This document shows positions 2,629-24,203 of a stretch of 64,000 nucleotides of DNA, piece by piece; position 1 is the first letter of the stretch, and each line of letters starts with the position of its first letter. The stretch is taken from positions 310-64,309 of the forward strand of contig JBGVIP010000028.1 of the NCBI GenBank assembly GCA_045123335.1. The letters are read 5' to 3'. The notes beneath the pieces are model-generated. The model worked only from the letters and a program-made list of their open reading frames with translations, did no database searches and was not told the DNA's origin. This DNA comes from Treponema sp. GTDB taxonomy: Bacteria; Spirochaetota; Spirochaetia; Treponematales; Treponemataceae. The translations under genes and the position numbers were made by a program.

Positions 2629-2644
2629 AAACATCCCCCTTAAC

Positions 2645-7416: not shown

Positions 7417-7441
7417 ACGCCGGGAAATGCATTTTTTTACG

Positions 7442-7484: not shown

Positions 7485-7487
7485 TTT

Positions 7488-8417
7488 ATGGAACACGATT
7501 TTCTTACCAGCCACCAGAGCCAGTACAAAGACCGCCTTTTTAAGTTCATCTTTGGGCGTGATGATGAAAACAGCAAAAAATGGCGACTTGAACTATACAA
7601 CACCCTGAACGGCACAAATTACACCGACCCGGATGCGCTTGAACTGAACACTATTGAAAACGTAATTTACATTACAATGCACAACGACATTTCGTTTCTC
7701 TTAGGCACAGAGATGAACCTTTACGAACAGCAGAGCTCGCGCAACCCGAACATGCCGCTTCGTGGATTGCTGTATTTTTCGCAGTTGTACCAGAATTACC
7801 TTACTAAAAACGGGAAAAATTTGATAAGTACCCAGCTTGTAAAAATTCCTACGCCGGAGTTCATCGTTTTCTATACTGGCAGCGAAACCGATCCAAAAGA
7901 ATGGACGCTTAAACTTTCCGATGCCTTTATGAACAAAGACAATTCCGGAGCCTACGAATGGACTGCAAAAGTGCTTAACATTCACCCTTTTTATGCAAAA
8001 GAACTTCAAAAAAGCTGCAAAGCGTTGTATGATTACAGTTGCTACGTCTATAGAATCAAGAACAACATAAAATCCGGCTTGACTAGCGACGAAGCCATTG
8101 AAGAAGCAATCGGTTGGGCAGAAAAAGAACACCTCTTGGGCAACTTCTTCAAAATCCAAAAAGCAGAGGTAATTGGTATGAGTTTAACGGAATTTGACGA
8201 AGATGAATTCAAGCGCATCTGCCGCGAAGATGGCTACGCAGAAGGTCTTTCTGAGGGGCTTTCTAAAGGACAAAAAGACGGTCGCATGGAAAAAGCTGTT
8301 GAAGCGGCAGTAAATTTTCTGAAAGAAGGTGATTCTCCAGAAAAAATTGCACGATGCACCGGCCTGCCTTTGGAAAAAGTTCTTGAACTTGCAGAAAACA
8401 TTACGGTAAAAGCTTAG
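7488..8417 (+). CDS. Rpn-family (recombination-promoting nuclease/putative transposase, PD-(D/E)XK-like) protein, copy 1
   Basis: Motifs YKDRLFKFIFG, HNDISFL, LYEQQSSRNPNMPLRGLLY and PTPEFIVFYTG; EG-repeat linker; C-terminal HTH-like tail (PEKIARCTGLPLEKV). Confidence 0.8.
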   Translation: MEHDFLTSHQSQYKDRLFKFIFGRDDENSKKWRLELYNTLNGTNYTDPDALELNTIENVIYITMHNDISFLLGTEMNLYEQQSSRNPNMPLRGLLYFSQLYQNYLTKNGKNLISTQLVKIPTPEFIVFYTGSETDPKEWTLKLSDAFMNKDNSGAYEWTAKVLNIHPFYAKELQKSCKALYDYSCYVYRIKNNIKSGLTSDEAIEEAIGWAEKEHLLGNFFKIQKAEVIGMSLTEFDEDEFKRICREDGYAEGLSEGLSKGQKDGRMEKAVEAAVNFLKEGDSPEKIARCTGLPLEKVLELAENITVKA

Positions 8418-8444
8418 CAGTAAATCGCCGCCCACCCCATTACC

Positions 8445-9473
8445 TTAAAATCTGCTATTTTCCAGTGCGGCTTCTATTTCTTTAACAAAATCGCGGCCCC
8501 AGTAGTCGCAGAGCATTTCGTAGGCTTCTTCTTTTATTTCAGGCTCAACCATTTTGCGGAACGTCATTATATTGTGCGCAAGAAAAGAGCGGCAGTTCTG
8601 CTTTATGGTGTCCATAATTTCTTTTGTAAAGACTTTTTCCATCTGTGGCTCTGGCAAGCTTTCTATTTCTGAAAAAATAGACGTAAAAACCGATGCCGTA
8701 GAAACAATCTTTTCCCAGTTCTTAATGTCAGTGATTTTGCGGTTTCCAGTAATGCCGTTTCCAACGCAATACACATAGGCGGAGTCTTCAACACCAAGAT
8801 ATTTACAGTCGTGTAGAGCCGCCTCGTAAGAAAGCCACACAAACTGAAGATAATCTTCTGCCATAGTACAGGAAACAGGCGGAATATGCTCCATTGTATT
8901 CAAAATAAGCTCGCGGTCGTAAAGCTTACCACACATAAACCCAATAATATCCATGTCGATTAAAAAATGCTCTATAATCTGATGCCCGCAAAGTTCCCCT
9001 AAATGAACATTATGAGCCTTAGAATTCATTTCCTGCATGTAATGTTCAGAACCGCTGCCTACTACCCGCAAAGCACTATGAACAATCTGAGCATTGTTTT
9101 CCTTTGCATAATTTAAAAGCCCAGGTAAAGCGCCGGCTTCCAGATAATCGTCGCTATCCAGCATAAAAACCCGCGCACCATTAGAAGCGTAAACCGCCGT
9201 CCGCCGCGCTTCAAACGCACCCTTATTCTGCGCATGACGAATATACTGAACCGGAAAATTACATTTTTTCTTAAAACCCTTTACAATTTCTGCACAGGAA
9301 CGCCCGTCCTCATCCTTACCGGGCGAACAATCGTCAACAACAACAAGTTCTATAGAACATCCTTCTGTCACCTGCGCCTTTACAGATTCCAGACACCGCA
9401 GCAAAGTATTTTCCGTGCCATACACAGGAACAAGAACGCTTATATCAATTTTTTTCTTTCCAAACAAAAACAT
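8445..9473 (-). CDS. Glycosyltransferase family 2
   Basis: ISVLVPVYGTE, VVVDDCS, NKGAFEARR and DXD (LDSDD) motifs. Confidence 0.9.
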   Translation of the reverse strand: MFLFGKKKIDISVLVPVYGTENTLLRCLESVKAQVTEGCSIELVVVDDCSPGKDEDGRSCAEIVKGFKKKCNFPVQYIRHAQNKGAFEARRTAVYASNGARVFMLDSDDYLEAGALPGLLNYAKENNAQIVHSALRVVGSGSEHYMQEMNSKAHNVHLGELCGHQIIEHFLIDMDIIGFMCGKLYDRELILNTMEHIPPVSCTMAEDYLQFVWLSYEAALHDCKYLGVEDSAYVYCVGNGITGNRKITDIKNWEKIVSTASVFTSIFSEIESLPEPQMEKVFTKEIMDTIKQNCRSFLAHNIMTFRKMVEPEIKEEAYEMLCDYWGRDFVKEIEAALENSRF

Positions 9474-9738: not shown

Positions 9739-11385
9739 TTATTCCTGCAATTCAAGATAATAACCGTCTGCTCCGTCATCAGTACTAGTACTTTTTAATT
9801 CATATGAAGTAGAAGAGTCAATGTCTAAAAAATAGTGTTCGCTAATATTATTAACTTTTTTCATATGATTATTATCTGTAAAATTAAAAGTATATGTATC
9901 TGCTTTATTTTTTAGTCCTTTAACTAGAGTGTGAACACTGCTATCATAAACATTTAAGCATTCGTAATTCTCAAAATTAAAAATAATTTTTCCATCTGTT
10001 ACATCTTGACTGCTAGTAATATTTTTTAAATCAATTGCAGCCCCATCATATAAAGTTATAAATAATGGAACAGAAATAGCATGTGAATCTCCATATGGAT
10101 TATTAATAACAGAATCATAAAGGTAAAAATTAAAAGTAGAATAAGTTCCTTTTCCTTTTAATTTCACATTTTCACCATAGATTGACAATATATTTTCATT
10201 TTTAGTTGGATCTGAATAATCAACATATGCTTCTAAACGGTAAGTTGTACTTGGAGTAATTATACTAATAGATTTTGTTTTTGCTGCATCATCTGGTAAT
10301 GCACCAAAAAGTCCGCTAGATCCATCTTCACCATACAAATCTACATAATCAAGAATAAAACTGTCATCGCAATAAATATAAATATTTTTATATTTATATG
10401 CTTCGTTTTTACAGTCTTCTTCAAAAACTGTTTTTATATATTTGGGATAAGCAACAGAACTTCCATCGCCATCTGCTTCTGGGGTTGTTGTTGCATGTAA
10501 ATAAACTGAATAAAAACGTTCATCTGTAATCGGTGTAAGATATGCATCGGCATAACTATATTTCATAACATAGATTGAATCATAATCAGAATACAATAAT
10601 TCAGAGGAAGAAATATTAAAATTATTATCCATTGAGTCCGTATTTAAAACGAACCTATATAGACCTTCTGTAACATTGTCTGGAGAAGTTTCCGTAAAAT
10701 TAAATACAACACCATTGTCATCTGAGTTAGGAGTGGAACAGCTATAGAAAATAGTGTTATCATCCAGATTAATCAAAGAAGCAGAACATGAAGCAAACAC
10801 AGCAAATTCACCTTTTATATGAACCTTGGCTATGTATCCTAAGTTATCATCAGCATAATAATCTGTGCCATCTGGAGTTTCAATAGAATCAATTGTATAA
10901 GGAACTTTTATTGAATTTCTTTTTTCAAGAGAAAATGAGATATTTTCAAGCACTCCAGAATATGTTACTTTGCATTCTTGATAACCAGCGTCTGAAAAAT
11001 AATATTTACAAGCATCGTTATTTATACCTGTAAAAACTATCTTGTCATAAGTCTTATTTAGTTCAACATAAAGCCATAGTCTTTCATAAAAATTATTATC
11101 CTGTTTAATTGTCAATTCAAACGGATCTCCTTCCGTCGGAAAACATACAGCTGTCCAGTTTGTTCTTGAATCTTTCGCTTGTTCATAAAAAGTTGGCATA
11201 AGAGTTCTTGAATCTGTTTCTGCAAAACATAATTCCACAGGGATTAATTCTGAATCAGATTCATTAGAAGATAATGTATTTTTTGCTAAAAGTAGTGAAC
11301 TTAAATTTGTTAAATTCTGAGTATCTGAACAGCCAAAAAATAAAAATACCAAAATTGCAGTCATTATAAAAATAATTTTTTTCAT
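9739..11385 (-). CDS. Hypothetical lipoprotein (low GC)
   Basis: MKKIIFIMTAILVFLFFG-C lipobox; AGGAGAG RBS; rich in Tyr/Asp/Ser. Confidence 0.75.
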   Translation of the reverse strand: MKKIIFIMTAILVFLFFGCSDTQNLTNLSSLLLAKNTLSSNESDSELIPVELCFAETDSRTLMPTFYEQAKDSRTNWTAVCFPTEGDPFELTIKQDNNFYERLWLYVELNKTYDKIVFTGINNDACKYYFSDAGYQECKVTYSGVLENISFSLEKRNSIKVPYTIDSIETPDGTDYYADDNLGYIAKVHIKGEFAVFASCSASLINLDDNTIFYSCSTPNSDDNGVVFNFTETSPDNVTEGLYRFVLNTDSMDNNFNISSSELLYSDYDSIYVMKYSYADAYLTPITDERFYSVYLHATTTPEADGDGSSVAYPKYIKTVFEEDCKNEAYKYKNIYIYCDDSFILDYVDLYGEDGSSGLFGALPDDAAKTKSISIITPSTTYRLEAYVDYSDPTKNENILSIYGENVKLKGKGTYSTFNFYLYDSVINNPYGDSHAISVPLFITLYDGAAIDLKNITSSQDVTDGKIIFNFENYECLNVYDSSVHTLVKGLKNKADTYTFNFTDNNHMKKVNNISEHYFLDIDSSTSYELKSTSTDDGADGYYLELQE

Positions 11386-11399
11386 ATAAACTCTCCTTT

Positions 11400-14300
11400 C
11401 TAGTACAATACAATACCTGAAGCAGATTTTTTAACTATTGTAAAATCAGTACGTGTCTTTTCTGTATTAATTGAAGATGTAGACAAATCAAAATATACAA
11501 CACGATCTGTATTTCTAAAATACAAATCAGATGTTGAAATAAAATTATCTGTATAGATTCCTCCATCCTGTAATAAAATATGATCGTCTTTTATTGCAAG
11601 GATTTTATAAACTCCATAAAAATATTCAGGATTTTTCCCAGAAGGAGCATAGGTATATTCTGTCCCTTGATCCTGCAACATTTCAGGATTAACGCCATAT
11701 AAACCTTCCTGAGTTAAACTTCCATCTTCATTACTTATAGATAGACATGCAATAGCACCTAAATTTGTATAATATAGAGACTGCGCATCAGAATAACTGT
11801 ACATTGTAACATACAATTTACCGTTAACGACTGCCATATCTGAATAATTCTGTGTTAAATCAGAATAAGAATAAATAGGTTTCAAAGGAAATGAGTCGCT
11901 ATATATAGCCGCAGTTGTGGCATCGTCAATTTTTGTACCATCTTCTATACTAAGCCCATTATTAGTGCGGTTAATCTTAATCTTATATATTCCTTTAGTT
12001 TTTCCATTTTCAAATGACAAATATACATAATTTCCGTATACAGCCATTTGACTAAGCGACAAAGCAGTACCTTCGTAATTAACATCAACATTAAAAGTGT
12101 CTGTCTTGTATACCTTGTTATTTCCCGAAACATCTGATTTTGCAATTAAAGGACAAACCGCTATACAATAATCAGTTCCAGAAGGAGAAGTATCTGTTGA
12201 TTTTAACAGCAAATAAATCTCTCCGTTATATTTGTTCATATCTACAATTAGATAACTACCAATATCATTTTTAAATTTGCTATATGCATAATTTAAATCC
12301 TCTATTATTTTTTTTGATGAATTGCTTATTTTATAGGCAAAAAAATCTGAAATTGAAGAAGACGTACATTGACAAATATACAAATAACCGTCATTTAAAT
12401 TCCAGTAATTCCATGAATCTTCGGAAGTTCTTGGCATTTGAATATTGTTTAAAACAATATTTGAAGAACCTTCGTCAGAATAATAATCAATGACATATTG
12501 TTCATCATAATCTATATAAGATCTTTCAAATGCAACCCAATCAGTATTAGCCGCAGTTTCATTAAAACTAAGTTTCATAACAGTATTAACTTCATCATTA
12601 CCGCATTTCATTGTGCAGGAAATATAGTTGTCAGTGCCGGTAATAAACTGCGAATATTTAAGATTAATTGTTGAGCCCGTCCCAACAGATTTGCCGTTAA
12701 TTTTCCACTCAAATGATGATGGAGATACTTCTTTATTATAAGATGCAGCAAAATTTATTGTAGAAGAAAGGTTGTCATTCCAGTCAAATGTTGCATCAGC
12801 AGATTTGTTATAAGTTTTCTGTCCGCCGTCATAAATGCCTGTAGCATTTATAGAAAGGTCATAATAACTGTCTTTTGTGGATATAAGAGAACCACCCCTC
12901 TTAACAAGATAAAGATTAGCGTAAGTTCCTGTAGGAGCAGTATCTCCAGAATTAACATAATCTGTGTCTACTGCAACTTCAAAAGAAAGGTCATAATAGT
13001 AGTCTTTCTTTGCCTTGTCATAAACATAAAGCTTAAGCGTAGATGCGCCTGTAATGGCTGAATTTAATTTTGTTAAAAAGTTATAATCTGAAACATAAAT
13101 TGCCTGTGCTTCTGCATGCGTATTTGAAATCCTAATAAACGGATTATCTTTATCCAAATAATTTTCCGGATCATGAATATAACATGTGCTGAACGGCATT
13201 AAAGCTGTTTCCAAAACAACATTATTTTCAAAAACACCGATATAATCAGAATCTCCTCTAAAACTATCACCTTTTATTACTCCCAATGAAGATTTAGTAT
13301 TAGAAGAATCAGCAAAAACAACTTTACCGTTATTGACAGTAACAGTATAAGAAGAAATCGTATATGTTCCGGTGCTAGAAATTACAGATATACTTCCTTT
13401 TTTACTAAAGAATGTACTGTCAGATTTTGCACTGTCTTTTACAATTGAATTATACTCTTTTGCATCCAAAACAAAATCACCGCAATATACAACAACAGAT
13501 TCATCTTCCTGCCAAGGAGCACTTATCAATGTATCAATAATATTCCAGACATAACCAGCTGTTTCCGGGTAAAGTCCGTTACCAGTGCTTCTTGGATCAG
13601 AATTTGCATAATAATAAGGACGAAGACTGTTCAAAGAATATGTATAATACGCTTCTACAGTTCCTTCTGTAATTTTATCAGAATTTATTGCAATAATAGA
13701 GTCAGAAAGCGGAATATTGTCCAGGCTTATTGTATTTATGCCGTTCTGAAATTCTTTTAAGCCTACTGTAAGTCTGTAAAAACCAGGGGCAAGACCTGTA
13801 CTTGTAGATGGGTTTGGTTCAAGCGTAAAAATCTTTTTACTTTCTTTAATCGTAGAAGTAACAGAAATATATTCTTCTGTTATTGAACCAGAATCAAATG
13901 TTGAAGAAACGTTTGTAAGAGAGAAAGAAAGATTAGTGTCTCCTAAGAAATCATTTTCCCATATTTCCATATCAAATTCAACATTAATAGAATATGAACC
14001 TTCATCTCCACTATTCTGTACGGAAGAAACTTCCATGTCTATTCGACTGCCTGAATTTTCAGACAAATCTACATCGGCTTTTTCTGCATGGAACGAATAA
14101 GTTACCTCTTCAGAATCTGTATACGAGCCGAAAAGATAAATTGAATAATGACCCTTTTTAATCATCTTAAAAGAGATATTACCATTTGAATCTGCCTTAA
14201 GATTTTGAAAATAAGCAGAGCGGGCTTCTTTATATGTATTACGTTCACTTGGATAAAGACTTACTGTCCATACTATGTCATTAAGATAGTCTAACAGATA

Positions 14301-14480
14301 ACTGTTGTTTACGCCTAATACACGGCTTTCTGCCTGTTTTACAGAAATTTTATATTCTGTTCCCTGTTCTTCCTGATTAAAAATAGAGGCAAGCAAAAAC
14401 TTTTCTGAAACAGAATCGCTGTTTGAACAGCCTGCAAAAATCAGGGCAAATAAAATTAATGCACTAAAAATCTTTTTCAT
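11400..14480 (-). CDS. Large hypothetical surface lipoprotein (low GC)
   Basis: Start at ATG 14480 (GGAGAG RBS): MKKIFSALILFALIFAG-C. Ig-like segment (FEWKINGKSV) and a beta-rich C-terminal domain. Confidence 0.75.
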   Translation of the reverse strand: MKKIFSALILFALIFAGCSNSDSVSEKFLLASIFNQEEQGTEYKISVKQAESRVLGVNNSYLLDYLNDIVWTVSLYPSERNTYKEARSAYFQNLKADSNGNISFKMIKKGHYSIYLFGSYTDSEEVTYSFHAEKADVDLSENSGSRIDMEVSSVQNSGDEGSYSINVEFDMEIWENDFLGDTNLSFSLTNVSSTFDSGSITEEYISVTSTIKESKKIFTLEPNPSTSTGLAPGFYRLTVGLKEFQNGINTISLDNIPLSDSIIAINSDKITEGTVEAYYTYSLNSLRPYYYANSDPRSTGNGLYPETAGYVWNIIDTLISAPWQEDESVVVYCGDFVLDAKEYNSIVKDSAKSDSTFFSKKGSISVISSTGTYTISSYTVTVNNGKVVFADSSNTKSSLGVIKGDSFRGDSDYIGVFENNVVLETALMPFSTCYIHDPENYLDKDNPFIRISNTHAEAQAIYVSDYNFLTKLNSAITGASTLKLYVYDKAKKDYYYDLSFEVAVDTDYVNSGDTAPTGTYANLYLVKRGGSLISTKDSYYDLSINATGIYDGGQKTYNKSADATFDWNDNLSSTINFAASYNKEVSPSSFEWKINGKSVGTGSTINLKYSQFITGTDNYISCTMKCGNDEVNTVMKLSFNETAANTDWVAFERSYIDYDEQYVIDYYSDEGSSNIVLNNIQMPRTSEDSWNYWNLNDGYLYICQCTSSSISDFFAYKISNSSKKIIEDLNYAYSKFKNDIGSYLIVDMNKYNGEIYLLLKSTDTSPSGTDYCIAVCPLIAKSDVSGNNKVYKTDTFNVDVNYEGTALSLSQMAVYGNYVYLSFENGKTKGIYKIKINRTNNGLSIEDGTKIDDATTAAIYSDSFPLKPIYSYSDLTQNYSDMAVVNGKLYVTMYSYSDAQSLYYTNLGAIACLSISNEDGSLTQEGLYGVNPEMLQDQGTEYTYAPSGKNPEYFYGVYKILAIKDDHILLQDGGIYTDNFISTSDLYFRNTDRVVYFDLSTSSINTEKTRTDFTIVKKSASGIVLY

Positions 14481-14493
14481 ATATCTCTCCTGA

Positions 14494-16425
14494 TTATTTT
14501 TCAATTATAAGACTATTAATGAGACCACTACCAGGCAACGTAATTACTATAGAAGGATCTTCCATGGCAACACTAACAGTTTTTTCTTTAAGGTTAAACT
14601 TCATTATTCTTGATTTGTATTTTGCACAGTTATAGTCAGAATCTACTTTTTGATATATTCCAGTATCTGGAATGTAAAGTTCATCTTCCTTGATGGCATA
14701 AAAACCAAGTGGATTATAGAACTGGCACTTTTCATTTTCAGGTGTAGGTATAATTAATTTTATTGTTTTGTCTGGAGCCTGTTTCAAATCTGAAACTGTA
14801 TCAGCTGTAGCAATTCCATAAATTTTTATGCTGTTATTCACATTTTTATCAAAATCAAAACCAGTTTCAGTGATTGCTGCAACTGCAATTCCTCCTGTAA
14901 TAGTATCAGTAGAACCTTCCTCAGCTGACATACCATTCGAATAATCTATGAAATTAACCAATACATATATTTTGTATATATCACCGTTTTTTACAGGATA
15001 AATTCCAACTATATAACAAGTCTTTCCTAATGCAGTAATAGTTTTAGAATCAATAATTTCAGTATCAAATGAGGGAGTTCCTTCAGTATAATTAATTTGC
15101 TTGCAATTAAGGGTTTGTTCAGAATTATCATTAGTATTAACATAAACAAAATATTTATCGGCTATAGCAAATCTAGAATTTGATATAGTATAAGTTACAG
15201 ATTTATATTCAGAACCCATTATTTTTACAAAACAATTGTTATTCTCGCCATCTTTCCCATAAATCCATAGATATCCATCTGTATCATATGCTGCTTTTGA
15301 AGCAGAACTAAGTCCATAATTTGAAATAGGAGTAGACGAAGTTTCTGAGTAAACACCATTTACATATGAATATTCTATTATCTTATAGCTATAAGTACCT
15401 GAATCACTATCATATTCAGAATCTAGAAAAGTAAATGTACTGTCTTTAAATGCATATAAATTTGAACTGCAAAATTCATATGAATTTTTCATCGTACAAT
15501 CATATATATAAAGTTCACCGGATCCAGCATTTTTAGGGTAAATATACTGCTCACTATCAGCTTCTGTAAAATTAAATGCAAACATTCTGCTGCAGGAAAC
15601 TGTTTTTGCAGAACTTACATATGCGTATTTTACAAAACATTCAACAGTATTTTTGCCTCCAATATCTACAAGAGCACATTGTTTTGGATTAAAAACAATG
15701 CTGTCTGTATCGTCATAGTCTTCTGTAGAATCATCATTAAGATTTGTGCCGTTTATACGCCATTCATATGTAACGTTTTCAGTAATTTTTGTGCCGTCAG
15801 CATTAAGGCAGGTAAATACAAGTTCCTTACCATCTTCAATATTGAATGTTTCTATCGATGTATCTGAATCTTTCTGTGTACCGTATTCAGCCTTAATCAA
15901 AAGTTCTGTTGTTTCAGGCTTAAGGTTTATAGAACCATCCGCATCAACGCTATATGCAAGGTCAATTGTTATCGGGGTAACTTCGCCGGCAAGGATTAAT
16001 GTTTTATTTGCGGAATACAGAACGTCGCCGTCTGAGTCTTTAATTTCTATTAATGCAAAAAGGGTTTTATTCATTGGAAGATTGATTACGGCAACTGTAC
16101 CGGATGCTTTGTTTCCATCGCCGTGTTCTTCCTGCCACTTTGCTCTTTTAATTTTTCCGGAACCCATAGAAACGCCACCATCCCATGTAATTGTTACGTC
16201 AGCGGTGTATTCGATGAAATTAAATTCTTCATCCTCGATATGGGGTTCTTCATCAAACTGCAGCAAATGAGATGCCGAATTTGCCTGAAGAAAACTGCTT
16301 TCAGGAAGGGAAACATTCAGACCGATTGCAAGTGAAGCTTTTTTTTCACTCGGTTCAATCAGGCTGCAAGAAACAAATAAACTTAACAAAAATACAAAAA
16401 CTGATAAAACTGCATATCTTCTCAT
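14494..16425 (-). CDS. Hypothetical surface lipoprotein (low GC)
   Basis: MRRYAVLSVFVFLLSLFVS-C lipobox; Ig-like segment (YEWRINGTNL). The C-terminus resembles that of the downstream gene. Confidence 0.75.
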   Translation of the reverse strand: MRRYAVLSVFVFLLSLFVSCSLIEPSEKKASLAIGLNVSLPESSFLQANSASHLLQFDEEPHIEDEEFNFIEYTADVTITWDGGVSMGSGKIKRAKWQEEHGDGNKASGTVAVINLPMNKTLFALIEIKDSDGDVLYSANKTLILAGEVTPITIDLAYSVDADGSINLKPETTELLIKAEYGTQKDSDTSIETFNIEDGKELVFTCLNADGTKITENVTYEWRINGTNLNDDSTEDYDDTDSIVFNPKQCALVDIGGKNTVECFVKYAYVSSAKTVSCSRMFAFNFTEADSEQYIYPKNAGSGELYIYDCTMKNSYEFCSSNLYAFKDSTFTFLDSEYDSDSGTYSYKIIEYSYVNGVYSETSSTPISNYGLSSASKAAYDTDGYLWIYGKDGENNNCFVKIMGSEYKSVTYTISNSRFAIADKYFVYVNTNDNSEQTLNCKQINYTEGTPSFDTEIIDSKTITALGKTCYIVGIYPVKNGDIYKIYVLVNFIDYSNGMSAEEGSTDTITGGIAVAAITETGFDFDKNVNNSIKIYGIATADTVSDLKQAPDKTIKLIIPTPENEKCQFYNPLGFYAIKEDELYIPDTGIYQKVDSDYNCAKYKSRIMKFNLKEKTVSVAMEDPSIVITLPGSGLINSLIIEK

Positions 16426-16561
16426 GTTTTCATATTAAGTCTTTTTAATAAATTGTGCTACACAAGAAGCATGTAAAAAATGATTTTTTTTAAGAATTTA
16501 ATTCACAACAGGTGGTTTACTTCGTGCTCTTACGAATCGACAAACTCAACCACCTATTTTT

Positions 16562-17449
16562 CTATTCAATTCTTGCTTTATCAAATAAAGGAGAAGACAG
16601 GAACTTGGAAAGGCTTTCTTTCCAGTCAGGCAGAGCTATGCCAAGGGTTTTCTGGATTTTGTCCTTGCTTAAAACTGAATAAGCCGGGCGCTTTGCAGGT
16701 GTAGGATATTCATCTGTTGTACACGGATTTACGACGCAGTCTTTGTTTGTAATCCAGCCCTTTTCTATTCCCTGTCTTTTGATTTCGTTTGTAAAATCCC
16801 ACCAGGTAATTTCGCCAAGGTCTGTACAATGGTAGATTCCATACGGAACATCATCTTTTTTGATTATCTGAATGATTACAGAAGCAAGATCTGCGGCAAA
16901 AGTCGGAGTTCCTTTCTGATCATTTACAACTTTTACGGCATCGTGTGTGTTCATGGCGCGAATCATTGTGTAAACAAAATTCTTTCCGGCCCAGCCGTAA
17001 AGCCAAGCTGTTCTAAGGATATAATATTCATCTGTAGTAGAAGCTACTGCCTTTTCTCCGTCAGCTTTTGTTACGCCATAAACTCCGATCGGGGCAATCG
17101 GCATGTCTTCTGTTCTTGGTGTGCTGCCCGTGCCGTCAAAAACATAGTCTGTAGAAATATGAATCATCTTTGCGCCGTATTTTTTTGCTACAGATGCAAT
17201 GTTTTCCGGGCCTTTTTCGTTAAGAAGACGGGCAAAATCACTTTCGCTTTCTGCCTTGTCTACGGCTGTATATGCAGAACAGTTGATTATATATTTAAGT
17301 CCGCTAAGGGATGAAGCAAAGCTGTCCAAAGCTTTCGGGGATGTAATGTCTACATCAATGTCAGTTCCCTTAAATTCAATATTATTTTCCTTAAGCTGAC
17401 GCGCAATTTCTGTTCCGAGCATTCCTTTGCAGCCAATTAACCAAATCAT
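16562..17449 (-). CDS. rfbD: dTDP-4-dehydrorhamnose reductase
   Basis: GCKGMLG Rossmann motif, INCSAYTAVDKAE, HISTDYVFDG, YGVTK and PAKRPAYSVL. Confidence 0.95.
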   Translation of the reverse strand: MIWLIGCKGMLGTEIARQLKENNIEFKGTDIDVDITSPKALDSFASSLSGLKYIINCSAYTAVDKAESESDFARLLNEKGPENIASVAKKYGAKMIHISTDYVFDGTGSTPRTEDMPIAPIGVYGVTKADGEKAVASTTDEYYILRTAWLYGWAGKNFVYTMIRAMNTHDAVKVVNDQKGTPTFAADLASVIIQIIKKDDVPYGIYHCTDLGEITWWDFTNEIKRQGIEKGWITNKDCVVNPCTTDEYPTPAKRPAYSVLSKDKIQKTLGIALPDWKESLSKFLSSPLFDKARIE

Positions 17450-17506
17450 ATTAACCCCATGACTAAAATCTTTGTCCGTTTATTTAAAGACTTTTTTATA
17501 AATTTT

Positions 17507-18808
17507 TCAAGTGCGGACCGGATTCGAATAGAAAGATTTTACAACTTCTACCATATAGTCCACGTCTTTTGCTCCGGCACTTTCCATAGGAGAATGCATT
17601 GCCCACTGGGCAAGTCCTATGTCTACAGAGCAGATTGAAACCTGCTTTGTGCTTATGTTTCCAAGGGTGGAACCGCCCGGCGTGTTTGAATTGTTTGTGT
17701 AAACCTGACACGGTACACCGGCTTTTCTACAGATTTCGCGGAAAACTGCGGCGCTAAGCCCGTCTGTTGTATATTTTTGGGATGCGTTGAATTTTAAAAC
17801 CGGTCCGCCGTTTACTGCAGGCTGATTAACAGGGTCAGCAGACTGAACATAATTAGGGTGAACGGCATGTGCATTATCAGCACTGATTAAAAAACCCTTT
17901 GCAACTGCGCGCTGGTAGTCTTCTTCTGAACAGCCGGAACACAGGCAAATTCTGTGAAGGATGTCCTTTAAGAATGTTGAAGCAGCTCCCTGTCGGCTCT
18001 GGCTTCCTACTTCTTCGTTGTCGAACATACAAAATGCCCTTACACCGTCTGAATCCGTACAGGCAGCATTTACAAAGCCCGTGCAGCAAGTGAATACGCA
18101 TTCAAGGTCGTCAAGGCGCGGAGAGCAGATGAATTCGTCCTGAAAGCCCCAGAACGACGGTTCATCCCTATTATATAGAAAAATATCGTGGCCGATTATG
18201 CTGTCTGCGGGAATTCCTGCCTGGGAAGCCAGAAGGTCTGTAAGGCAAAAGTCGGCGCAGGTGGAAACAAGGGGAAGGACTTCGTTCTGAACGTTGATTT
18301 TTCCGCCGTCGTTGGCATCGCGGTTCATGTGGATGGCAAGGTTTGGAATCATAAGAAGATTTCTGTCTATACTAACAAGTTTCTGCCCGATTTTTATTGC
18401 GTCAGTGCTGGATTCGCGGTATACGACCCTTCCGGCTATACTAAGGGGACGGTCAAACCACGGGCGAATCAGCATGCCGCCGTATTTTTCTACGTTTAAG
18501 CGAACCAGTCCGGCCGACTTCATTTCAGGATTTTCCTTTACCTTAAAGCACGGGGAATCTGAATGGGCTGCGGTTATGTAAAAGGCGGCCGGTACTGCGG
18601 TGGCCGGCATTATGAATGCTATAAGAGCGGAGCCGTTTCTGGAAACAAAATATTTTCCCTGCGGTTTAAGTTCCCAGCGGTCGCCTTCGTTAATTTCTGT
18701 AAAGCCAGATGCAAGAAGGATTTCCTTTATGTTTTCTACTGCATGAAAGCAGCTTGGACTTTTCTTTATGAATTCCAGCATTTTGCCGGCATAAGTTGAT
18801 GTATTCAT
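17507..18808 (-). CDS. M18-family (aspartyl) aminopeptidase
   Basis: AHSDSP, EKYGG, RLDDL, DNEEVGSQSRQGA, SADNAHAVHPN and MHS metal-binding motifs. Confidence 0.93.
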   Translation of the reverse strand: MNTSTYAGKMLEFIKKSPSCFHAVENIKEILLASGFTEINEGDRWELKPQGKYFVSRNGSALIAFIMPATAVPAAFYITAAHSDSPCFKVKENPEMKSAGLVRLNVEKYGGMLIRPWFDRPLSIAGRVVYRESSTDAIKIGQKLVSIDRNLLMIPNLAIHMNRDANDGGKINVQNEVLPLVSTCADFCLTDLLASQAGIPADSIIGHDIFLYNRDEPSFWGFQDEFICSPRLDDLECVFTCCTGFVNAACTDSDGVRAFCMFDNEEVGSQSRQGAASTFLKDILHRICLCSGCSEEDYQRAVAKGFLISADNAHAVHPNYVQSADPVNQPAVNGGPVLKFNASQKYTTDGLSAAVFREICRKAGVPCQVYTNNSNTPGGSTLGNISTKQVSICSVDIGLAQWAMHSPMESAGAKDVDYMVEVVKSFYSNPVRT

Positions 18809-18841
18809 TTGTTTTCCTCAGGAATATTATACATCAAATAT

Positions 18842-19165
18842 GGACAGATTGTCACAGTTTAGTAGACGGAATTCGGATGTGACAATCTGTCCTTATATAT
18901 AAATTCTGTCTACCCTGTTTTGTGATAAAACGTCCACATATTTGTGACATCTTGTCCGTGCATTGAGATAAATTGTCCATATATTGTGATTTTATGTCCA
19001 CATATGCATAAATTCTGTCTACTTAACGCCTGTATACCTAGAAAAATTCTACAGAATTTGAATGGGAACCAGGACAAATTGTCACAAAATCATTGTGATT
19101 TTATGTCCTTATAAGGTGTGATAATCTGTCCGTATATTTTAAGCATATGTGGACAGAAAATCACA
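18842..19165. repeat. Iteron-like array A (15-bp TGTGAYWWWYTGTCC, direct and inverted copies)
   Basis: Copies at 18842(rev), 18878, 18921, 18943, 18964, 18985, 19072(rev), 19094, 19117 and 19151(rev). The 18921-18985 copies are spaced 21-22 bp. Confidence 0.85.
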
Positions 19166-19215
19166 AACGCCACTCCCCTACTCTGAACAAACTCACTATA
19201 AATTTAAAAAAAATT

Positions 19216-19409
19216 TGCGCGAAGGAGCGAAGCGGAATGAAAAAAGACTCTGATTGTGGGTGCCGCGAAGCGGCATATCATAAGTTCCTTTGCCACAATC
19301 AGCGTCTAGCCCGCTAGCGGGCGATTTTTCATTCCGCTTCGTGACTGGGAGCATATTTTTGATAAATATTTATTATGATGAGTCTGCTTCCGCTTCGCTC
19401 CTTCGCGCA
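19216..19409. repeat. GC-rich nested inverted repeats inside the origin region
   Basis: tgcgcgaaggagcgaagcggaa (19216-19237) is the reverse complement of 19388-19409, and cgaagcggaatgaaaaa (19228-19244) is the reverse complement of 19325-19341. Confidence 0.8.
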
Positions 19410-19466
19410 TTTTTTTTTAATCTCACTTGTATTTTATCGCCCCTGCTCCCCTCCCCTACTGCTTTA

Positions 19467-19664
19467 TGTGACAAAACGTCCATATAAGGACAGAAAATCA
19501 CAATACGAAAAACAGGCTGTGACAATCCGTCAACATAAAAAAGACAACCTGTCCGTACCAGAATGATTTTCTGTCCACATGAAAAAAAGCAGAAGTCTGC
19601 ATAAAAAATGACAATCTGTCCGCATAACCATGACATTACGTCCGTATAAGATGACAAACTGTCC
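19467..19664. repeat. Iteron-like array B
   Basis: Copies at 19467, 19488(rev), 19518, 19540, 19562, 19607, 19629 and 19650, with about 22-bp periodicity (one degenerate slot near 19584). Confidence 0.85.
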
Positions 19665-19778
19665 GTATTAGCATAAATAACTTTTTTTATTACAACAAAA
19701 TACAACGGCCTATATTATTTAAATTAACAAAAATTTAAAACAAATTTTAATAATTTGTGCAAATTCTTCAATATGAAT
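19665..19778. other. AT-rich tract next to the iterons (candidate DNA-unwinding element)
   Basis: Very AT-rich run (e.g. tatattatttaaattaacaaaaatttaaaacaaattttaataatt) between iteron array B and the rep promoter. Confidence 0.55.
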
Positions 19779-19779
19779 C

Positions 19780-19815
19780 TCGACTTATATGTGGACATGT
19801 GATAAACTAAAGTCC
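19780..19815 (+). promoter_or_regulatory. Candidate rep promoter with inverted iteron half-sites
   Basis: TCGACT(19780)-17 nt-TAAACT(19803) with a TGn extension. GGAC (19793) and GTCC (19812) flank the -10. Confidence 0.45.
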
Positions 19816-19826
19816 ATATAAGGGAA

Positions 19827-20852
19827 ATGGGGAAAATGGATCGGGAGCCAGAGCTTTTCGATGAATACAATTATTCATCACTTGCAAGAGATACTGAAAT
19901 CAAATTTCAGACTCAAAAAGTAATTAACCAAAAATATGTAATTCAGCCGAACAACATCACAAAAGCAATCTATGACATGAACTTAGGTTCTAAGCGAATT
20001 GTCATGATGGCATGCTCTCTTCTGCTTGAAAGAGATAATACTGATAATCTTACGGCAAAAAAAGACCTTACTGTAAAATTCCGTCTTGAAGATGTAATGA
20101 AGACGCTGAATCTTGCGCATGGCAGCACCACAAAAAAAATGCTGGAAAATGCCATAGAAACAATCTTTGATCAGAAAATCCGCATACGCACGGAAGACGG
20201 CTGGACAAAGCTGTACCACTGGTTTGTGGAATCAAAATATTCGCTTGAAAAAAACGGCATAGAACTTACCTTTACGCCGCAAGTTGCCCAGGCATTTATT
20301 GACTACCTTAAGGGATATTCTGTCATTAATCTTGACGTTTACGGAAACCTTACCGGAAAGTATTCAATCCGAATGTACGAGCTGTGCTGGTCATATCACG
20401 GTTTTGCCTCAAAAAAAGATGGAACCTGGAAAACTCCGCTTGTTGAAGTTTCGGAAATACGCACCATGTGGCAGATTGAAGATTCCAAGTATCCAATGAT
20501 GAGTGACTTTAAAAAACGCGTTTTTGATGTTGCCAAAAAGGAAATCAATGACTACGAAAATTCTCAGTTCACTGTAGAAAAAATTGAAGACGTAAAGCAG
20601 GGAAAGAAAATCATAGGATGGTACTTCCACTGCAAGCTTAAGGGCGAAACAAGGTCAAAGCTTTCTCTTTCCAGTTCGGCTTTAAACCGCGAAGATGACA
20701 GCATTGCGCGCGACCACCAGCAGGAAGTGCTTCAGCTTTTTAAGACACTGATTTCTTCTGAGGAAATTAAGAATTCTGAAAATCGTATTGAACGCGAAAA
20801 TCAGGCGCTGGAAGAAGCCAAGCAGACTATAATAAGCAAATACAGAGAATAG
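19827..20852 (+). CDS. Plasmid-type replication initiator, Rep_3 (RepB/RepE-like winged-helix) family
   Basis: QPNNITKAIYDMNL, KLYHWF..SKY, LTFTPQV and GKYSIRMYEL motifs, then MSDFKKRVFDVAKKEIN and KQGKKIIGWYF, typical of Rep_3 WH1/WH2. Adjacent iterons support the call. Confidence 0.88.
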   Translation: MGKMDREPELFDEYNYSSLARDTEIKFQTQKVINQKYVIQPNNITKAIYDMNLGSKRIVMMACSLLLERDNTDNLTAKKDLTVKFRLEDVMKTLNLAHGSTTKKMLENAIETIFDQKIRIRTEDGWTKLYHWFVESKYSLEKNGIELTFTPQVAQAFIDYLKGYSVINLDVYGNLTGKYSIRMYELCWSYHGFASKKDGTWKTPLVEVSEIRTMWQIEDSKYPMMSDFKKRVFDVAKKEINDYENSQFTVEKIEDVKQGKKIIGWYFHCKLKGETRSKLSLSSSALNREDDSIARDHQQEVLQLFKTLISSEEIKNSENRIERENQALEEAKQTIISKYRE

Positions 20853-20860
20853 TAATTTTG

Positions 20861-20969
20861 GTTAAACTGTGTTTAATATAGTTTAATGTTTGTTAAATTG
20901 TGTTAAACGTGGTTAAACCGAGTTAAATATGATTTAATTAAGTTTAATACGGTTTAATTTCTGTTTAAC
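20861..20969. repeat. Phased GTTWAAY heptad array 1 (parS-like)
   Basis: 11 copies at 20861, 20871, 20881, 20892, 20902, 20912, 20922, 20932, 20942, 20952 and 20963 (10-11 bp period). Confidence 0.8.
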
Positions 20970-21183
20970 TGTAATAAACTTTGTCTACAGGCAGTTTTTC
21001 TTAAAAAAATCAGAAAACAGAAATGCTCCTGAGATTAAAAAAACAGGGGGTAAAATTAAAGATTGATAAATTACCCTAAAATCAAAAGAAAACCGCTCAG
21101 AATCAATCCTAGAGCGTCTGAGAGGGTGTATAAATGCGGTGTTCCATTACCCCTTTTTCTTTTTGAGCGTTTTATCCGGTTTG

Positions 21184-21346
21184 GTTAAACTTTAGTTTAA
21201 TAAATGTTTAACTTTTTGATAAATCTATATAATTTGGTTAAACGAAGGTTAAATACAATTTAACTAAGTTTAATTCAGTTTAATCATTGTTAAAAATGGT
21301 TAAACGTGGTAAAATCAGATTAAATTAAGTTTAATTTTTGTTTAAC
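21184..21346. repeat. Phased GTTWAAY heptad array 2 (parS-like, over the parA promoter region)
   Basis: Copies at 21184, 21195, 21206, 21237, 21248, 21258, 21268, 21278, 21289, 21299, 21309, 21319, 21329 and 21340 (some degenerate). Confidence 0.8.
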
Positions 21347-21391
21347 GCTGCCGATAATGACAGTGTAATTAAAAAATTGTCTGGAGATATT

Positions 21392-22138
21392 ATGAAGACA
21401 TATGCATTTGCAATTCAGAAAGGCGGAACAGGAAAGACAACTGTAAGCGTGTCTGTTGCCGTTGAACTTGCGCGCCGCGGAAAGCGTGTTGTGCTTATAG
21501 ACGGAGACCCTCAGGGAAATGCTTCCAGCTGGCTTTTGGACAGCCTTGACTACGAACTTGCTGACGTTCTTTACGGCAAGGTAAGCCTTAGTCAGGCATA
21601 CACAAAGACAAAAATAGAAAACCTTACTTTCATTCCTACTGCCGGACTTAATGGCGAATTAAGAAGCTATTCAACAAAGATGGGCGAATCAAAGCCTTTT
21701 ATCTTTAAGCACATGCTTCCAGAACTGAGCAAAGACTTTGACTACTGCATCATAGATACTTCGCCGAGCTTTACAGGTCTTGAAAAATCAATCTTCCTTG
21801 CTGCAGATGAAGTAATTGCCGTAATGCAGGTTGACTATTTTTCTACGGACGGACTTCAGATTTTTATGGACAATCTGTCCACAATGAAAAAAGATTTTGA
21901 TTCTGCCGAAAAGCCTGAATTCAAAAAAATCGTAATGAACGTAAAGGATAACCGCATAAAATACCAGGATGACATGATTTCTCAGTTAAAAGCGCTTAAA
22001 AAGTTCGAATTTTTCATGATTCCGGTAGATCAGGGCTTTAAAAAGGCTCAGACAACTCACTATGCAATCCAGGATTTTCCGTCAATTAAGGGCGAAACCC
22101 TTGAAGCAATTACTGAAATTGCAGGGAGTCTTGAATAA
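21392..22138 (+). CDS. parA: ParA/Soj-family partition ATPase (no N-terminal HTH, type Ib-like)
   Basis: Deviant Walker A QKGGTGKT, A' (LIDGDPQGNAS) and Walker B (YCIIDTSP). Real start is ATG 21392 after GGAG. Confidence 0.92.
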   Translation: MKTYAFAIQKGGTGKTTVSVSVAVELARRGKRVVLIDGDPQGNASSWLLDSLDYELADVLYGKVSLSQAYTKTKIENLTFIPTAGLNGELRSYSTKMGESKPFIFKHMLPELSKDFDYCIIDTSPSFTGLEKSIFLAADEVIAVMQVDYFSTDGLQIFMDNLSTMKKDFDSAEKPEFKKIVMNVKDNRIKYQDDMISQLKALKKFEFFMIPVDQGFKKAQTTHYAIQDFPSIKGETLEAITEIAGSLE

Positions 22139-22533
22139 TGGCACTTCAGAAGAAAAAAATTACTTATGATCTTACGGGTCAGATTAATTCCATGAACAGC
22201 ATTGTTGATGGCAATGAACCAGAAGAAGCCGGTGCGGCTGCTGTTCAGGCTTTGCGGGAAGAAAACGGAGTTCAGGCTGCGTCAAAATCTGCTGAATATG
22301 GACAGAATGTCACAAAGCAGACGGAAAAAGCTCCTAAAAAGGCTAATGAAAGCTCTGTAATGGTGGGATTTAAGATTCCAAAGGAAGCAAAGGACCAGTA
22401 CAAGGAATTTTTTGAAGGCTACGGGCTTAATTTGAGCGAAGCAATGAAAAATGCGCTGGAATATTTTGCCTCTGACGTTGAAAAGGGAAAGGTTAAGATT
22501 ACTTTGACCAGACATTTTGAACGGATAGAGTAG
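22138..22533 (+). CDS. Small ParA partner, probable ribbon-helix-helix centromere-binding protein
   Basis: Coupled to parA (TAATG). Low-complexity N-terminal half; C-terminal beta-alpha-alpha pattern SVMVGFKIP-KEAKDQYKEFFEGYG-LNLSEAMKNALEYFA. Confidence 0.7.
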   Translation: MALQKKKITYDLTGQINSMNSIVDGNEPEEAGAAAVQALREENGVQAASKSAEYGQNVTKQTEKAPKKANESSVMVGFKIPKEAKDQYKEFFEGYGLNLSEAMKNALEYFASDVEKGKVKITLTRHFERIE

Positions 22534-22549
22534 AGCGTATTTATCGATT

Positions 22550-22599
22550 GTTTAATACGGTTTAACAGTGGTTTAATATACGTTGAATAATCGTTTAAC
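22550..22599. repeat. Phased GTTWAAY heptad array 3
   Basis: Copies at 22550, 22560, 22571, 22582 (gttgaat) and 22593. Confidence 0.7.
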
Positions 22600-22623
22600 T
22601 TTTGTATAAATTTGCTGTAAAAA

Positions 22624-22659
22624 TGTGACAATTTGTCCTTATATGGACAGGTTGTCACA
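22624..22659. repeat. Inverted pair of iteron motifs downstream of the par operon
   Basis: tgtgacaatttgtcc (22624) -ttatat- ggacaggttgtcaca (22645). Confidence 0.8.
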
Positions 22660-22679
22660 TTTTTTTTATACGGGGTGTT

Positions 22680-22744
22680 GCGGGGTGTCCCCGCTGGAAA
22701 GGGTAGCCCGCAACGGAGTGCGGGCGAGGGGAAGGCTTTCCCCT
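22680..22744. repeat. Three tandem GC-rich mini-hairpins (REP-like element/terminator)
   Basis: gcgggg-tgt-ccccgc; gcccgca-acggag-tgcgggc; agggga-aggctt-tcccct. Confidence 0.6.
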
Positions 22745-22757
22745 ACTGTTGCTTTGT

Positions 22758-24203
22758 CTAAAGGTTGTCTGCAAGTACGTAGTAGCTTGAAGGATCGTGG
22801 GCTTTGGCAAGGCCGCCGCTTACTGCTGCGGAAATAATCTGCTGTGCAAAAGGACTGTATTTTTCTGAACTGCTTATGCCGTTCAAAAGACTTGAGTTTT
22901 CTGCAGATACAATTATTGCAGGAATGCAGCTGAATACAAAGGCTGGGCTTACATATCCCTTTATGTAGTATTTTCCGTCTGAAGAAACAACAGAAAGGTT
23001 TCCGAATTTTGCAATTCCAAGTGTGTTAAGTTCTGCAAGTTTATCGTTGGCAGTCTGTTTGTCTTTCATCAAGAGAGCAAAAAGGTCATCATCCGTGCTG
23101 CCTGTAACGTAAAGTTCGTCGCGAGAAGCTGCGCTTGACTGGAAGCTTTTTACAACTTCCGTATTGTTTGCGCCTGAAGAAACGTATGTTCCTGTAAGGT
23201 CTTCGCGCTGATATGCCAGAAGCAGGTACCATGCGCTGCTTAATTCTGAAGAGTCAGAAATTGAAGCATTGCGTGTAATTCCGTTTCTTGTAAATCCCCA
23301 TGACTGGAGCGGAAGTATTGTAATCATGTCGTCGTCGTTTATAAAGTTGAATATGGTTGTGTAAGTTTCTGCATCTGCCTTATCTGTTGTTGTAAACGGA
23401 CTTGCAAAAGTGTAGGTGAATGTTTTTTCAAATTCTGTTGATTTTTCGTATTTTGCACCAAGTATGTTTGCAATTGCTCCGCCGCGTGAATGTCCTGTAA
23501 GGAAGATGATTTTTTTTGCTGTTCCGGAAACGTTTGCTGTTATGTAATCCTGGATTTTGGCGTCTGCGCGTTCTGCTGCAATAAAAAATCCCTTGTGATA
23601 CTTTTTGTTTGTCCATTCTGCATGCGAGCCTGTTGCGGCTGTGTAGGAAACAGTTGTGTTTCCAATGTCAAAGTTGCTGTACCACTGTTCTTTTGTTGCG
23701 TTTGAACCCTGGACTGTAACCATTATTACTTCGTATTCTGCTGAATCTTTTGTAAAATTTTTGTGGCTGATTACAAAATTTGTTATGTCATCTTTGTCAG
23801 ATGTGTAGACATCGCTGTTCAGTTTGTATTCTGCTGCGTCTGTAAATCCAAAATTTGAATAGATTGAAATATTGTCTGTTGCAGAAGCCGGAGAAGTTCC
23901 TCCGCTTGTTACTACCATTTCTGATGAATCGTATACGTCGGTTGCCATGCAGGCTGCGTATTTTGCATATTCCCGGTTAAATTCTGTTTCGTCTGCAGAA
24001 ACAAGGGATTCCGGAGAAAATTTAAAATCGACCATATAGACAAAACCGGCTTCTTTCATGACTCCTGATGTACGTGATGTAAGGGATGAATAGATTGCGT
24101 TTTTAACTATACCTTCAGCAAATGAATCCTGTTCAACTTCTGTAGAGCAGGAAAAAAGACCTAAAGCCACTGCGGCTAGTACTGATAAATGTAATTTTTT
24201 CAT
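22758..24203 (-). CDS. Lipoprotein with class 3 lipase (alpha/beta hydrolase) domain
   Basis: MKKLHLSVLAAVALGLFS-C lipobox; HKGF, nucleophile TGHSRGG, YTFASP and INDDDMITILP motifs; C-terminal AHDP. Confidence 0.82.
   Translation of the reverse strand: MKKLHLSVLAAVALGLFSCSTEVEQDSFAEGIVKNAIYSSLTSRTSGVMKEAGFVYMVDFKFSPESLVSADETEFNREYAKYAACMATDVYDSSEMVVTSGGTSPASATDNISIYSNFGFTDAAEYKLNSDVYTSDKDDITNFVISHKNFTKDSAEYEVIMVTVQGSNATKEQWYSNFDIGNTTVSYTAATGSHAEWTNKKYHKGFFIAAERADAKIQDYITANVSGTAKKIIFLTGHSRGGAIANILGAKYEKSTEFEKTFTYTFASPFTTTDKADAETYTTIFNFINDDDMITILPLQSWGFTRNGITRNASISDSSELSSAWYLLLAYQREDLTGTYVSSGANNTEVVKSFQSSAASRDELYVTGSTDDDLFALLMKDKQTANDKLAELNTLGIAKFGNLSVVSSDGKYYIKGYVSPAFVFSCIPAIIVSAENSSLLNGISSSEKYSPFAQQIISAAVSGGLAKAHDPSSYYVLADNL

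Follow-up and report, generated by a model that had tools for sequence, protein, structure and literature searches.

From where is a stretch of spirochaete DNA replicated when a plasmid-type replication module lies in it among genes for metabolism, transport and signalling? The question is raised by 64,000 nt of Treponema sp. (assembly GCA_045123335.1, contig JBGVIP010000028.1, positions 310 to 64,309), hereafter called the window. There, a first-pass annotation made from the letters alone had described a complete module of iterons, a Rep_3 initiator gene, a parA gene, a gene for a ribbon-helix-helix (RHH) protein and centromere-like (parS) repeats, and had proposed that it drives a chromosome-like replicon, i.e. 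a candidate chromid. All the named parts were recovered, the RHH protein by weak RelB matches and a family profile. We consider it very likely that an uncultured gut Treponema has a large, low-copy secondary replicon, which may be a megaplasmid or a chromid, and that the segment from 18.8 to 22.8 kb serves it as origin and partition cassette. The parts of the module, their conservation and the strand polarity around it are direct observations. The parts are arranged as follows (coordinates in the window; a dot for features given no strand):

18836..19165 (.), iteron cluster 1, 10 copies in both orientations
19467..19670 (+), iteron cluster 2, 8 copies
19650..19790 (.), AT-rich stretch between the iterons and rep, 77-79% AT (100-nt windows) versus ~61% for the whole window
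19786..19823 (.), partial iteron and inverted half-iteron (ATATGTGGACA ... GTCCATATAA), just 5' of the rep start codon
19827..20852 (+), rep, coding for a 341-aa initiator of the Rep_3 family with two winged-helix domains, WH1 and WH2
20857..20979 (.), centromere-like array A, ~12 tandem 10-bp units GTTWAAYnnn, between rep and parA
21180..21345 (.), centromere-like array B, directly 5' of parA
21392..22138 (+), parA, coding for a small partition ATPase of the Walker type, 248 aa if started at the conserved ATG 21392 (a TTG at 21338 begins the longest open reading frame, ORF)
22138..22533 (+), RHH-type gene directly 3' of parA, coding for a 131-aa ParG-like putative centromere-binding protein
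22294..22314 (-), single iteron inside the RHH gene
22545..22611 (.), centromere-like array C, 3' of the par operon
22619..22664 (.), palindromic iteron pair 3' of the par operon (core matches at 22624-22659)

The Rep protein scored well above the cut-offs of both Pfam domains of its family (Rep3_N, 5e-20, 72.7 bits for a cut-off of 22.4; Rep3_C, 7e-14, 52.3 bits for 21.1) and matched the NCBIfam RepE model at 1e-10. A profile of its family matched the RepE structures 1REP and 2Z9O over residues 39-258, which include both winged-helix domains. This family is small, with ten clusters at 60% identity or more, and was present in 5 of the species-representative genomes searched, all of them metagenome-assembled genomes (MAGs) of Treponema. 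When Rep_3 proteins were searched exhaustively, only its own 50%-identity cluster came below 1e-30 and the next relatives were 29-37% identical; a protein search of PLSDB gave no Rep more than 30% identical to that of the window. Judged by sequence, it belongs to an isolated lineage within Rep_3.

The iterons are concentrated in the module. Sixteen matches to their core TGTGAYWWWNYGTCC (at most 1 mismatch) were obtained versus 0.49 expected, all at 18842-19532, 22300 and 22624-22659. A looser scan gave 21 copies of a 21-bp unit, with the consensus TGTGACAATCTGTCCATATAT, and 2 loose matches elsewhere in the 64 kb. Four iterons of cluster 1 stand in tandem at 18921-19005 with a spacing of 20-24 bp. 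Cluster 2 finishes with six direct repeats spaced by about 22 bp (19518, 19540, 19562, 19607, 19629 and 19650), which end 157 bp before rep; this cluster is the probable origin-proximal array for Rep binding. By analogy with known origins, the AT-rich stretch is a candidate DNA-unwinding element, the half-iteron inverted repeat a candidate operator for Rep autorepression (as for RepE and pi), and the palindromic pair, in place of which the relatives have 4-7 iterons downstream of the par operon, a candidate site of copy control by handcuffing. An ORF of 106-110 aa runs across the iterons on the - strand (19373-19705) and is annotated in several assemblies; it has no family match and is probably not a gene.

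ParA carries the deviant Walker A motif KGGTGKT, is devoid of an N-terminal helix-turn-helix (HTH) domain and matched AAA_31 (1e-36), CbiA (3e-18) and NCBIfam ParA_partition (2e-21, below the cut-off of that model). In the homologues of its 131-aa partner, a conserved tail at the N terminus is joined by a variable linker to a strand-helix-helix segment at the C terminus. The window protein by itself gave weak RelB matches, but a profile of 29 homologues matched the solved RHH protein 2KEL at 1.2e-7, and the homologue on the megaplasmid pTS2 matched Pfam RHH_10 at 1e-5. An AlphaFold single-sequence model of the protein was of low confidence (pLDDT 43), with two helices at 82-115. As for the 10-bp phased GTTWAAY repeats, 35 of their 40 matches in the window fall in the module, versus 2.9 expected for the whole window; array B probably overlaps the par promoter, and the three arrays are candidates for the centromere of a type Ib-like partition system.

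The strand polarity of the window is centred on the same place. Total GC skew is negative from 1 to 18 kb and positive from 21 to 64 kb, and its cumulative minimum over the 64 kb is at 19-21 kb, within the range predicted in the first-pass annotation (about 19-22.7 kb). Total skew being confounded by the coding strand, third codon positions were used. With the switch set at the module, GC skew at third positions (GC3) was 0.00 for leading and -0.24 for lagging genes (p = 4e-6), and the T-over-A skew at the same positions (TA3) also separated them (p = 5e-5), which bears out the strand-dependent codon endings that had been noticed by eye.

If the module is an origin, the polarity should not depend on the genes that happen to surround it, and homologous rep-parA-RHH loci in other Treponema assemblies, with Rep 61-89% identical, allowed this to be seen. 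Both the core of the iterons and the 10-bp repeats recur in them, and iteron arrays stand to the left and to the right of rep-parA-RHH. A second species has conserved flanks; in general the flanks turn over fast between species, and in those with 61-63% identical Rep the intact module sits amid unrelated genes. In L017 (Rep 63%), genes for efflux pumps adjoin it on one side and ate/cinA on the opposite one; in L021 (Rep 61%; 1-9062, 15352-21080) it stands between a trpEGDCFBA operon and an acpP-fabH-fabD-fabG-fabF-fabZ-enoyl-reductase operon, so that core metabolism is found there beside a plasmid-type origin. In L017, in L021 and in L031 (Rep 89%), three species whose flanking genes differ from those of the window, third-position polarity flips exactly at the module (pooled skew: leading +0.17, lagging -0.23, p = 4e-7). 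Control udp loci without the module showed almost no leading/lagging effect, and relatives with the lipase-udp pair and no module (L040 and L043) had other left neighbours and a uniform skew. No relative had the two flanks joined without the module, the arrangement that would have betrayed a recent plasmid integration, and there was no empty-site sign of recent insertion. Since the switch travels with the module, a chromosomal oriC, a rearrangement breakpoint or divergent transcription cannot explain the polarity, and the module is therefore very probably the working origin of its replicon, as the first-pass annotation had supposed. From these sequence patterns we conclude that it is very probably both the bidirectional origin and the partition locus.

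What kind of replicon this may be is suggested by its partition proteins. The nearest ParA proteins in PLSDB are on closed megaplasmids of the same genus, in the range of 0.17-0.42 Mb: pTS2 (NZ_AP025290.1, 382 kb) and pTS1 (NZ_AP025289.1, 424 kb) of T. saccharophilum, with 46% and 36% identity, and pTRESU01 (NC_015386.1, 166 kb) of T. succinifaciens, with 46%. As in the window, a homologous small ParA is followed in all three by a homologous small RHH-type protein; total GC skew passes from negative to positive at the module, a change that is clear in pTS1 and pTS2 and weak in pTRESU01; and metabolic genes are carried (ppdK, fucO, a gal operon). The three differ from the window in their putative initiators, which are encoded 3' of the RHH gene and are not of the Rep_3 type (RepA_C-like in pTRESU01, HTH_36/DnaD_N-like in pTS1, without Pfam match in pTS2), whereas Rep_3 of the window is encoded 5' of parA, and they are without its iterons and 10-bp repeats. 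Comparison by BLASTP of the window Rep with the initiator partners of pTS2 and pTRESU01 was not significant. T. bryantii pTB1 (85 kb) was also considered as a relative and set aside: its first 20 kb resemble an ordinary plasmid and it was absent from the top ParA matches.

A ParA-profile scan widened this picture to 242 relatives in gut and rumen Treponema genomes, with up to 3 per MAG and on contigs of up to 333 kb. A negative-to-positive skew was present at 28 of the 34 related loci that could be tested (leading versus lagging, p = 1e-15), and RepA_C proteins made up 20 of 32 downstream partners. Two MAGs, RGIG756 and JAZQOB01, have the Rep_3 module and, on a separate contig, another ParA-RHH module. 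Large secondary replicons with this partition family are thus already present in closed Treponema genomes and are common, and the sequences of the ParA-RHH-RepA_C cassettes at skew switches (e.g. L120-L194) suggest that treponemes of gut and rumen often have multipartite genomes. The first-pass annotation had left two possibilities, a secondary replicon and a chromosome taken over by a plasmid origin; the megaplasmid-type partition pair, the further ParA-RHH module in MAGs that have the Rep_3 module and the lack of tRNA, rRNA, a DnaA-box cluster and information-processing genes in the 64 kb favour the former and make the latter unlikely. Two isolated cases may be added. In another Treponema MAG, a second, distant Rep_3 (L160, 7809-8795, - strand; E value of 2.5e-20 to the family profile) lies next to a 44%-identical ParA; Rep_3 and this ParA family have therefore been paired more than once. 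In T. pectinovorum ATCC 33768, an orphan ParA inside a 1.69-Mb contig (L141, 429.7-442.4 kb), with neither skew switch nor RHH or initiator partner, may be the relic of an integrated replicon.

The size of the replicon can be bounded from below. All sources of the module are short-read metagenome assemblies. Contig JAXJSC010000019.1 (164.6 kb; MAG Treponema sp. DOME_MAG_3598) is 96-99% identical to the window across the module and the right flank, and the order M18 peptidase, module, lipase and udp recurs in at least 10 independent metagenome assemblies; the arrangement is therefore not an accident of assembly. In the species of the window, 112.8 kb of a 186,039-bp scaffold precede the module, and another contig (L001) extends 149 kb from it in the opposite direction. 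The species with 89%-identical Rep has module contigs of 194,944 and 185,714 bp, with arms of at least 132 and at least 142 kb. This sets a lower bound of 186-195 kb on the replicon, which rises to 262-274 kb if the contigs do not wrap round a circle. Look-ups with the proteins at the ends of the window, meant to extend it, returned one 4.5-kb contig or nothing. The longest of more than 120 contigs are of 166, 186, 186 and 195 kb, whereas other Treponema contigs from the same collections reach 300-380 kb, a plateau that hints at a replicon of a few hundred kb.

Whether such a replicon deserves to be called a chromid depends on its genes. The criteria attributed to Harrison et al. 2010 are reportedly plasmid-type replication and partition, core genes that are chromosomal in relatives, a chromosome-like composition and codon use, and the form of a separate replicon, bigger than the plasmids beside it and smaller than the chromosome. 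Plasmid-type replication and partition are provided by the module. The surroundings, called housekeeping in the first-pass annotation, are indeed genes for metabolism, transport and signalling; they are not universal core genes. The window encodes an amino-acid ABC transporter, a CHASE2 cyclase, glycosyltransferases, large surface proteins, RmlD, an M18 peptidase, a lipase and Udp; a WYL regulator, GGDEF proteins, CheR, RnfC, RnfD and further Rnf subunits, and a Na/Pi transporter; a patatin, an MBOAT protein, Hsp20, FeoB, a methyl-accepting chemotaxis protein and a Bmp lipoprotein. Scans of the 64 kb for tRNA, rRNA and Rfam families gave none, nor is there any information-processing gene (no dnaA, dnaN or gyrB) among the window genes, of which about 13 ORFs have no family; some 100 kb of related loci are likewise free of tRNA, rRNA, ribosomal-protein and replication genes. 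The udp gene is chromosomal in the closed genome of T. ruminis RU1 and 83-89% conserved across its best 80 Treponema matches; in the three MAGs closest to the window, which are incomplete, it was seen among these 80 matches only on the Rep-module contig. The only rnf operon visible, feoB and the Na/Pi transporter are on the replicon as well. The placement of udp, together with relatives in which no empty site is seen, favours a domesticated replicon.

Several features of the window genes deserve separate mention. A low-GC island (9739-16425, 30-32% GC) holds three large genes without family (548, 1034 and 643 aa, the last with a lipoprotein-like signal); they are 52-76% identical to those of a strain otherwise 96-99% identical and probably encode variable surface proteins. 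Two unusual fusions are present, an amino-acid permease joined to a GGDEF domain (51962-54247) and a CHASE2 sensor joined to an adenylate/guanylate cyclase (4555-7416). Two Rpn-family paralogues (PD-(D/E)XK, 'putative transposase'), 86% identical and in the same orientation, lie one on each arm (7488-8417 and 42725-43633); both have atypical skew, and recombination between them would excise 35 kb, including the origin.

Some observations weigh against the proposed origin and secondary replicon. A change-point fit of the third-position skews, which halves their variance, prefers a switch at 13-17 kb, that is 3-6 kb to the left of the module. It does so because rmlD and the M18 aminopeptidase gene (16562-18808), which are on the leading side of the module, look lagging-like (GC3 of -0.22 and -0.37); the first-pass annotation had already warned that the bias was noisy between 16.5 and 22.5 kb. 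In L031 the orthologue of rmlD beside the module is of the leading type (+0.26), which suggests that the 16562-18808 segment was recently relocated or replaced in the lineage of the window. As a general feature, a true switch at 13-17 kb was ruled out by that orthologue and by the three other lineages in which polarity changes exactly at the module. No DnaA box TTATCCACA (at most 1 mismatch) was found at 14.8-25.2 kb, and matches across the whole window were as frequent as by chance (17 versus 16.6) and formed no cluster; at Rep_3 origins a DnaA box beside the iterons is common, not universal. The RHH fold of the 131-aa protein is predicted from profile matches, and it is by analogy that we infer DNA binding by Rep and by the RHH protein, the unwinding, the control of copy number and, in the biochemical sense, bidirectionality. 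The genome and metagenome collections searched contained no closed copy of the replicon by which circularity, size and separateness from the chromosome could be read directly, and the data consist of module-bearing contigs, the dnaA/oriC and rRNA loci of the same genome lying outside them.

Which other explanations could account for these data? The same origin could belong to a dispensable accessory megaplasmid with adaptive genes only, none of them essential or unique, so that the chromid label would be inapplicable. This is possible, if on the doubtful side. It agrees with the predominance of transport, signalling, surface and glycosyltransferase genes without universal core genes, tRNA or rRNA, with the quick change of flanks between species and with the occurrence of the Rep family in only 5 of the species-representative genomes searched; moreover, a survey judged the large extrachromosomal replicons of Treponema to be GC-deviant and probably not domesticated (bioRxiv 10.1101/2025.03.15.643453). 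It accords poorly with the placement of udp, rnf, feoB and the Na/Pi transporter described above, and with the trp and acpP-fab operons that flank the module in L021. The binning of the replicon with a Treponema MAG in 5 species also speaks against it, weakly as the argument is partly circular. Far less probable is an integrated plasmid, or its remnant, in the main chromosome, with a skew due to a nearby oriC, a rearrangement breakpoint or divergent transcription. The want of a closed replicon, the chromosome-like neighbours, the part of total GC skew that comes from coding-strand bias, the change point at 13-17 kb and the orphan ParA of T. pectinovorum could all be taken in its favour. Yet an oriC or a breakpoint would have to move together with the module through three species with unrelated flanks, and the coding-strand confound is removed by the use of third positions. 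The integrase, relaxase, transfer and phage families are absent among the window genes (again with about 13 ORFs without family assignment), and no att-like direct repeats flank the module, as the first-pass annotation had stated. DnaA boxes do not cluster, no relative has its flanks joined without the module, and none of more than 120 contigs exceeds 195 kb, where other Treponema contigs of the same collections go on to 300-380 kb.

Slightly less credible again is that the main chromosome of this lineage is initiated from the Rep_3/iteron origin, dnaA/oriC having been replaced or supplemented. Origin-type polarity with chromosome-like genes on both arms is what this would produce; the contigs set no upper limit to the size of the replicon, and the dnaA locus of this genome is outside the data. 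However, closed Treponema genomes consist of a chromosome plus megaplasmids with homologous ParA-RHH modules, and there are several ParA modules per MAG. The lack of tRNA, rRNA, ribosomal-protein and replication genes in the window and in the related loci, the plateau of the longest contigs at 166-195 kb and the extreme plasticity of the flanks between species, unlike that of chromosomal origin regions, are also contrary to it. An assembly artefact, in which a small plasmid would have been chimerically joined to chromosomal contigs, is the least probable of all. The sources are short-read metagenomes, and repeats are present in the origin together with a long hairpin whose orientation is reversed in the window; yet both junctions are identical in the 10 or more independent assemblies, obtained with different assemblers from different samples, conservation of the flanks extends to a second species, and the strand polarity of the flanks is organised round the module. 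A secondary replicon with its own origin and partition cassette is therefore the reading that we retain.

How would this secondary replicon be maintained? By analogy with mini-F and P1, the 21-bp iterons, chiefly the six that are repeated directly at 19518-19670, would be bound by Rep_3 monomers, which would melt the AT-rich stretch beside them and bring in the replisome of the host; forks would depart both ways and imprint a G/T-rich leading strand on each arm. Rep would probably repress its own promoter at the half-iteron inverted repeat, and the distal iterons 3' of the par operon would probably keep the copy number down by pairing with those at the origin. The RHH protein would bind the GTTWAAY arrays that flank parA and stimulate the ParA ATPase, so that copies are separated as in type Ib systems.

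The likeness to mini-F (ori2/RepE) and P1 (RepA) extends to a Rep_3-class initiator with two winged-helix domains, direct iterons of ~21-22 bp beside an AT-rich stretch and rep, a second iteron group on the far side (incB/incC of F, incC/incA of P1) and a large low-copy replicon with an adjacent partition operon. The window departs from them by a Rep at most 29-37% identical to any other Rep_3 cluster, by the want of a DnaA box beside the iterons, by distal iterons placed beyond the par operon, by a GC-rich hairpin that splits the iteron field and by its type of partition, Ib (small ParA plus RHH) as opposed to the type Ia of F and P1 (SopAB, ParAB). For partition, it is closer to ParF-ParG-parH of TP228 and delta-omega of pSM19035, which also have a small ParA without N-terminal DNA-binding domain, a small partner of the dimeric RHH type with a flexible N-terminal tail and short phased centromere repeats 5' of the operon that double as operator, a role that the repeats of the window may share. 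Its 10-bp GTTWAAYnnn unit and its three arrays set it apart, and other than in the RHH pattern its RHH-type protein is not detectably similar in sequence to either ParG or omega. Chromosome 2 of V. cholerae (RctB) and chromosome II of Leptospira are also large replicons with a plasmid-derived origin, of the iteron type, and a ParA-type partition system of their own, genes that are chromosomal in relatives and origin-centred strand polarity. The replicon of the window is much smaller than Vibrio chromosome 2, has an initiator of a family other than that of RctB, shows no evident crtS-like or Dam-type control and is known here from sequence alone.

The hairpin just mentioned is one of two GC-rich elements of the module:

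19197..19418 (.), GC-rich imperfect palindrome between the two iteron clusters, forming a long hairpin (free energy, dG, -68.8 kcal/mol, z -10)
22668..22757 (.), GC-rich element with a terminator-like hairpin, between the par operon and the convergent lipase gene

In the former, a core of ~150 nt has opposite orientations in the window and in 10 or more other contigs of the species, and a second, inverted copy of the 31-nt end is present in the window only. Possible explanations of this palindrome are a signal for strand-specific priming, an insulator, a small mobile palindrome and an effect of assembly. The latter, an element of 78-90 nt, has an 82% identical copy at an unannotated spot of T. 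saccharophilum pTS1 (NZ_AP025289.1, 332891-332970); a DNA search of PLSDB gave a single match, of 78 nt, and nothing else. That the two elements are dispersed repeats was not supported across ~190 loci. A scan of the module with promoter and terminator consensus sequences gave sites no commoner than in shuffled sequences.

Large secondary replicons shape the organisation and adaptation of bacterial genomes. To our knowledge, those of this phylum have been studied only in Leptospira and Borrelia. The Treponema cases have been noted only in passing, in three closed genomes: the papers that we found mention plasmids in T. succinifaciens and T. saccharophilum, and their replication and partition modules are not described there. 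No paper on an iteron/Rep_3 replicon in Treponema was found, which agrees with the first-pass remark that no such chromid was known to have been described. The present results suggest that the extra replicons of gut and rumen treponemes are recognisable by their conserved ParA-RHH cassette, placed where the skew switches; in one small clade the initiator is of an isolated Rep_3 lineage and the iterons are well defined. Such replicons should be allowed for when MAGs of these abundant gut spirochaetes are binned and their completeness is estimated. A stable low-copy vector for those gut treponemes that are hard to manipulate genetically might be based on the 3.9-kb cassette. To conclude, with udp, rnf and a fab operon found on plasmid-type replicons, the domestication of secondary replicons becomes a question that can be put to the test in spirochaetes.

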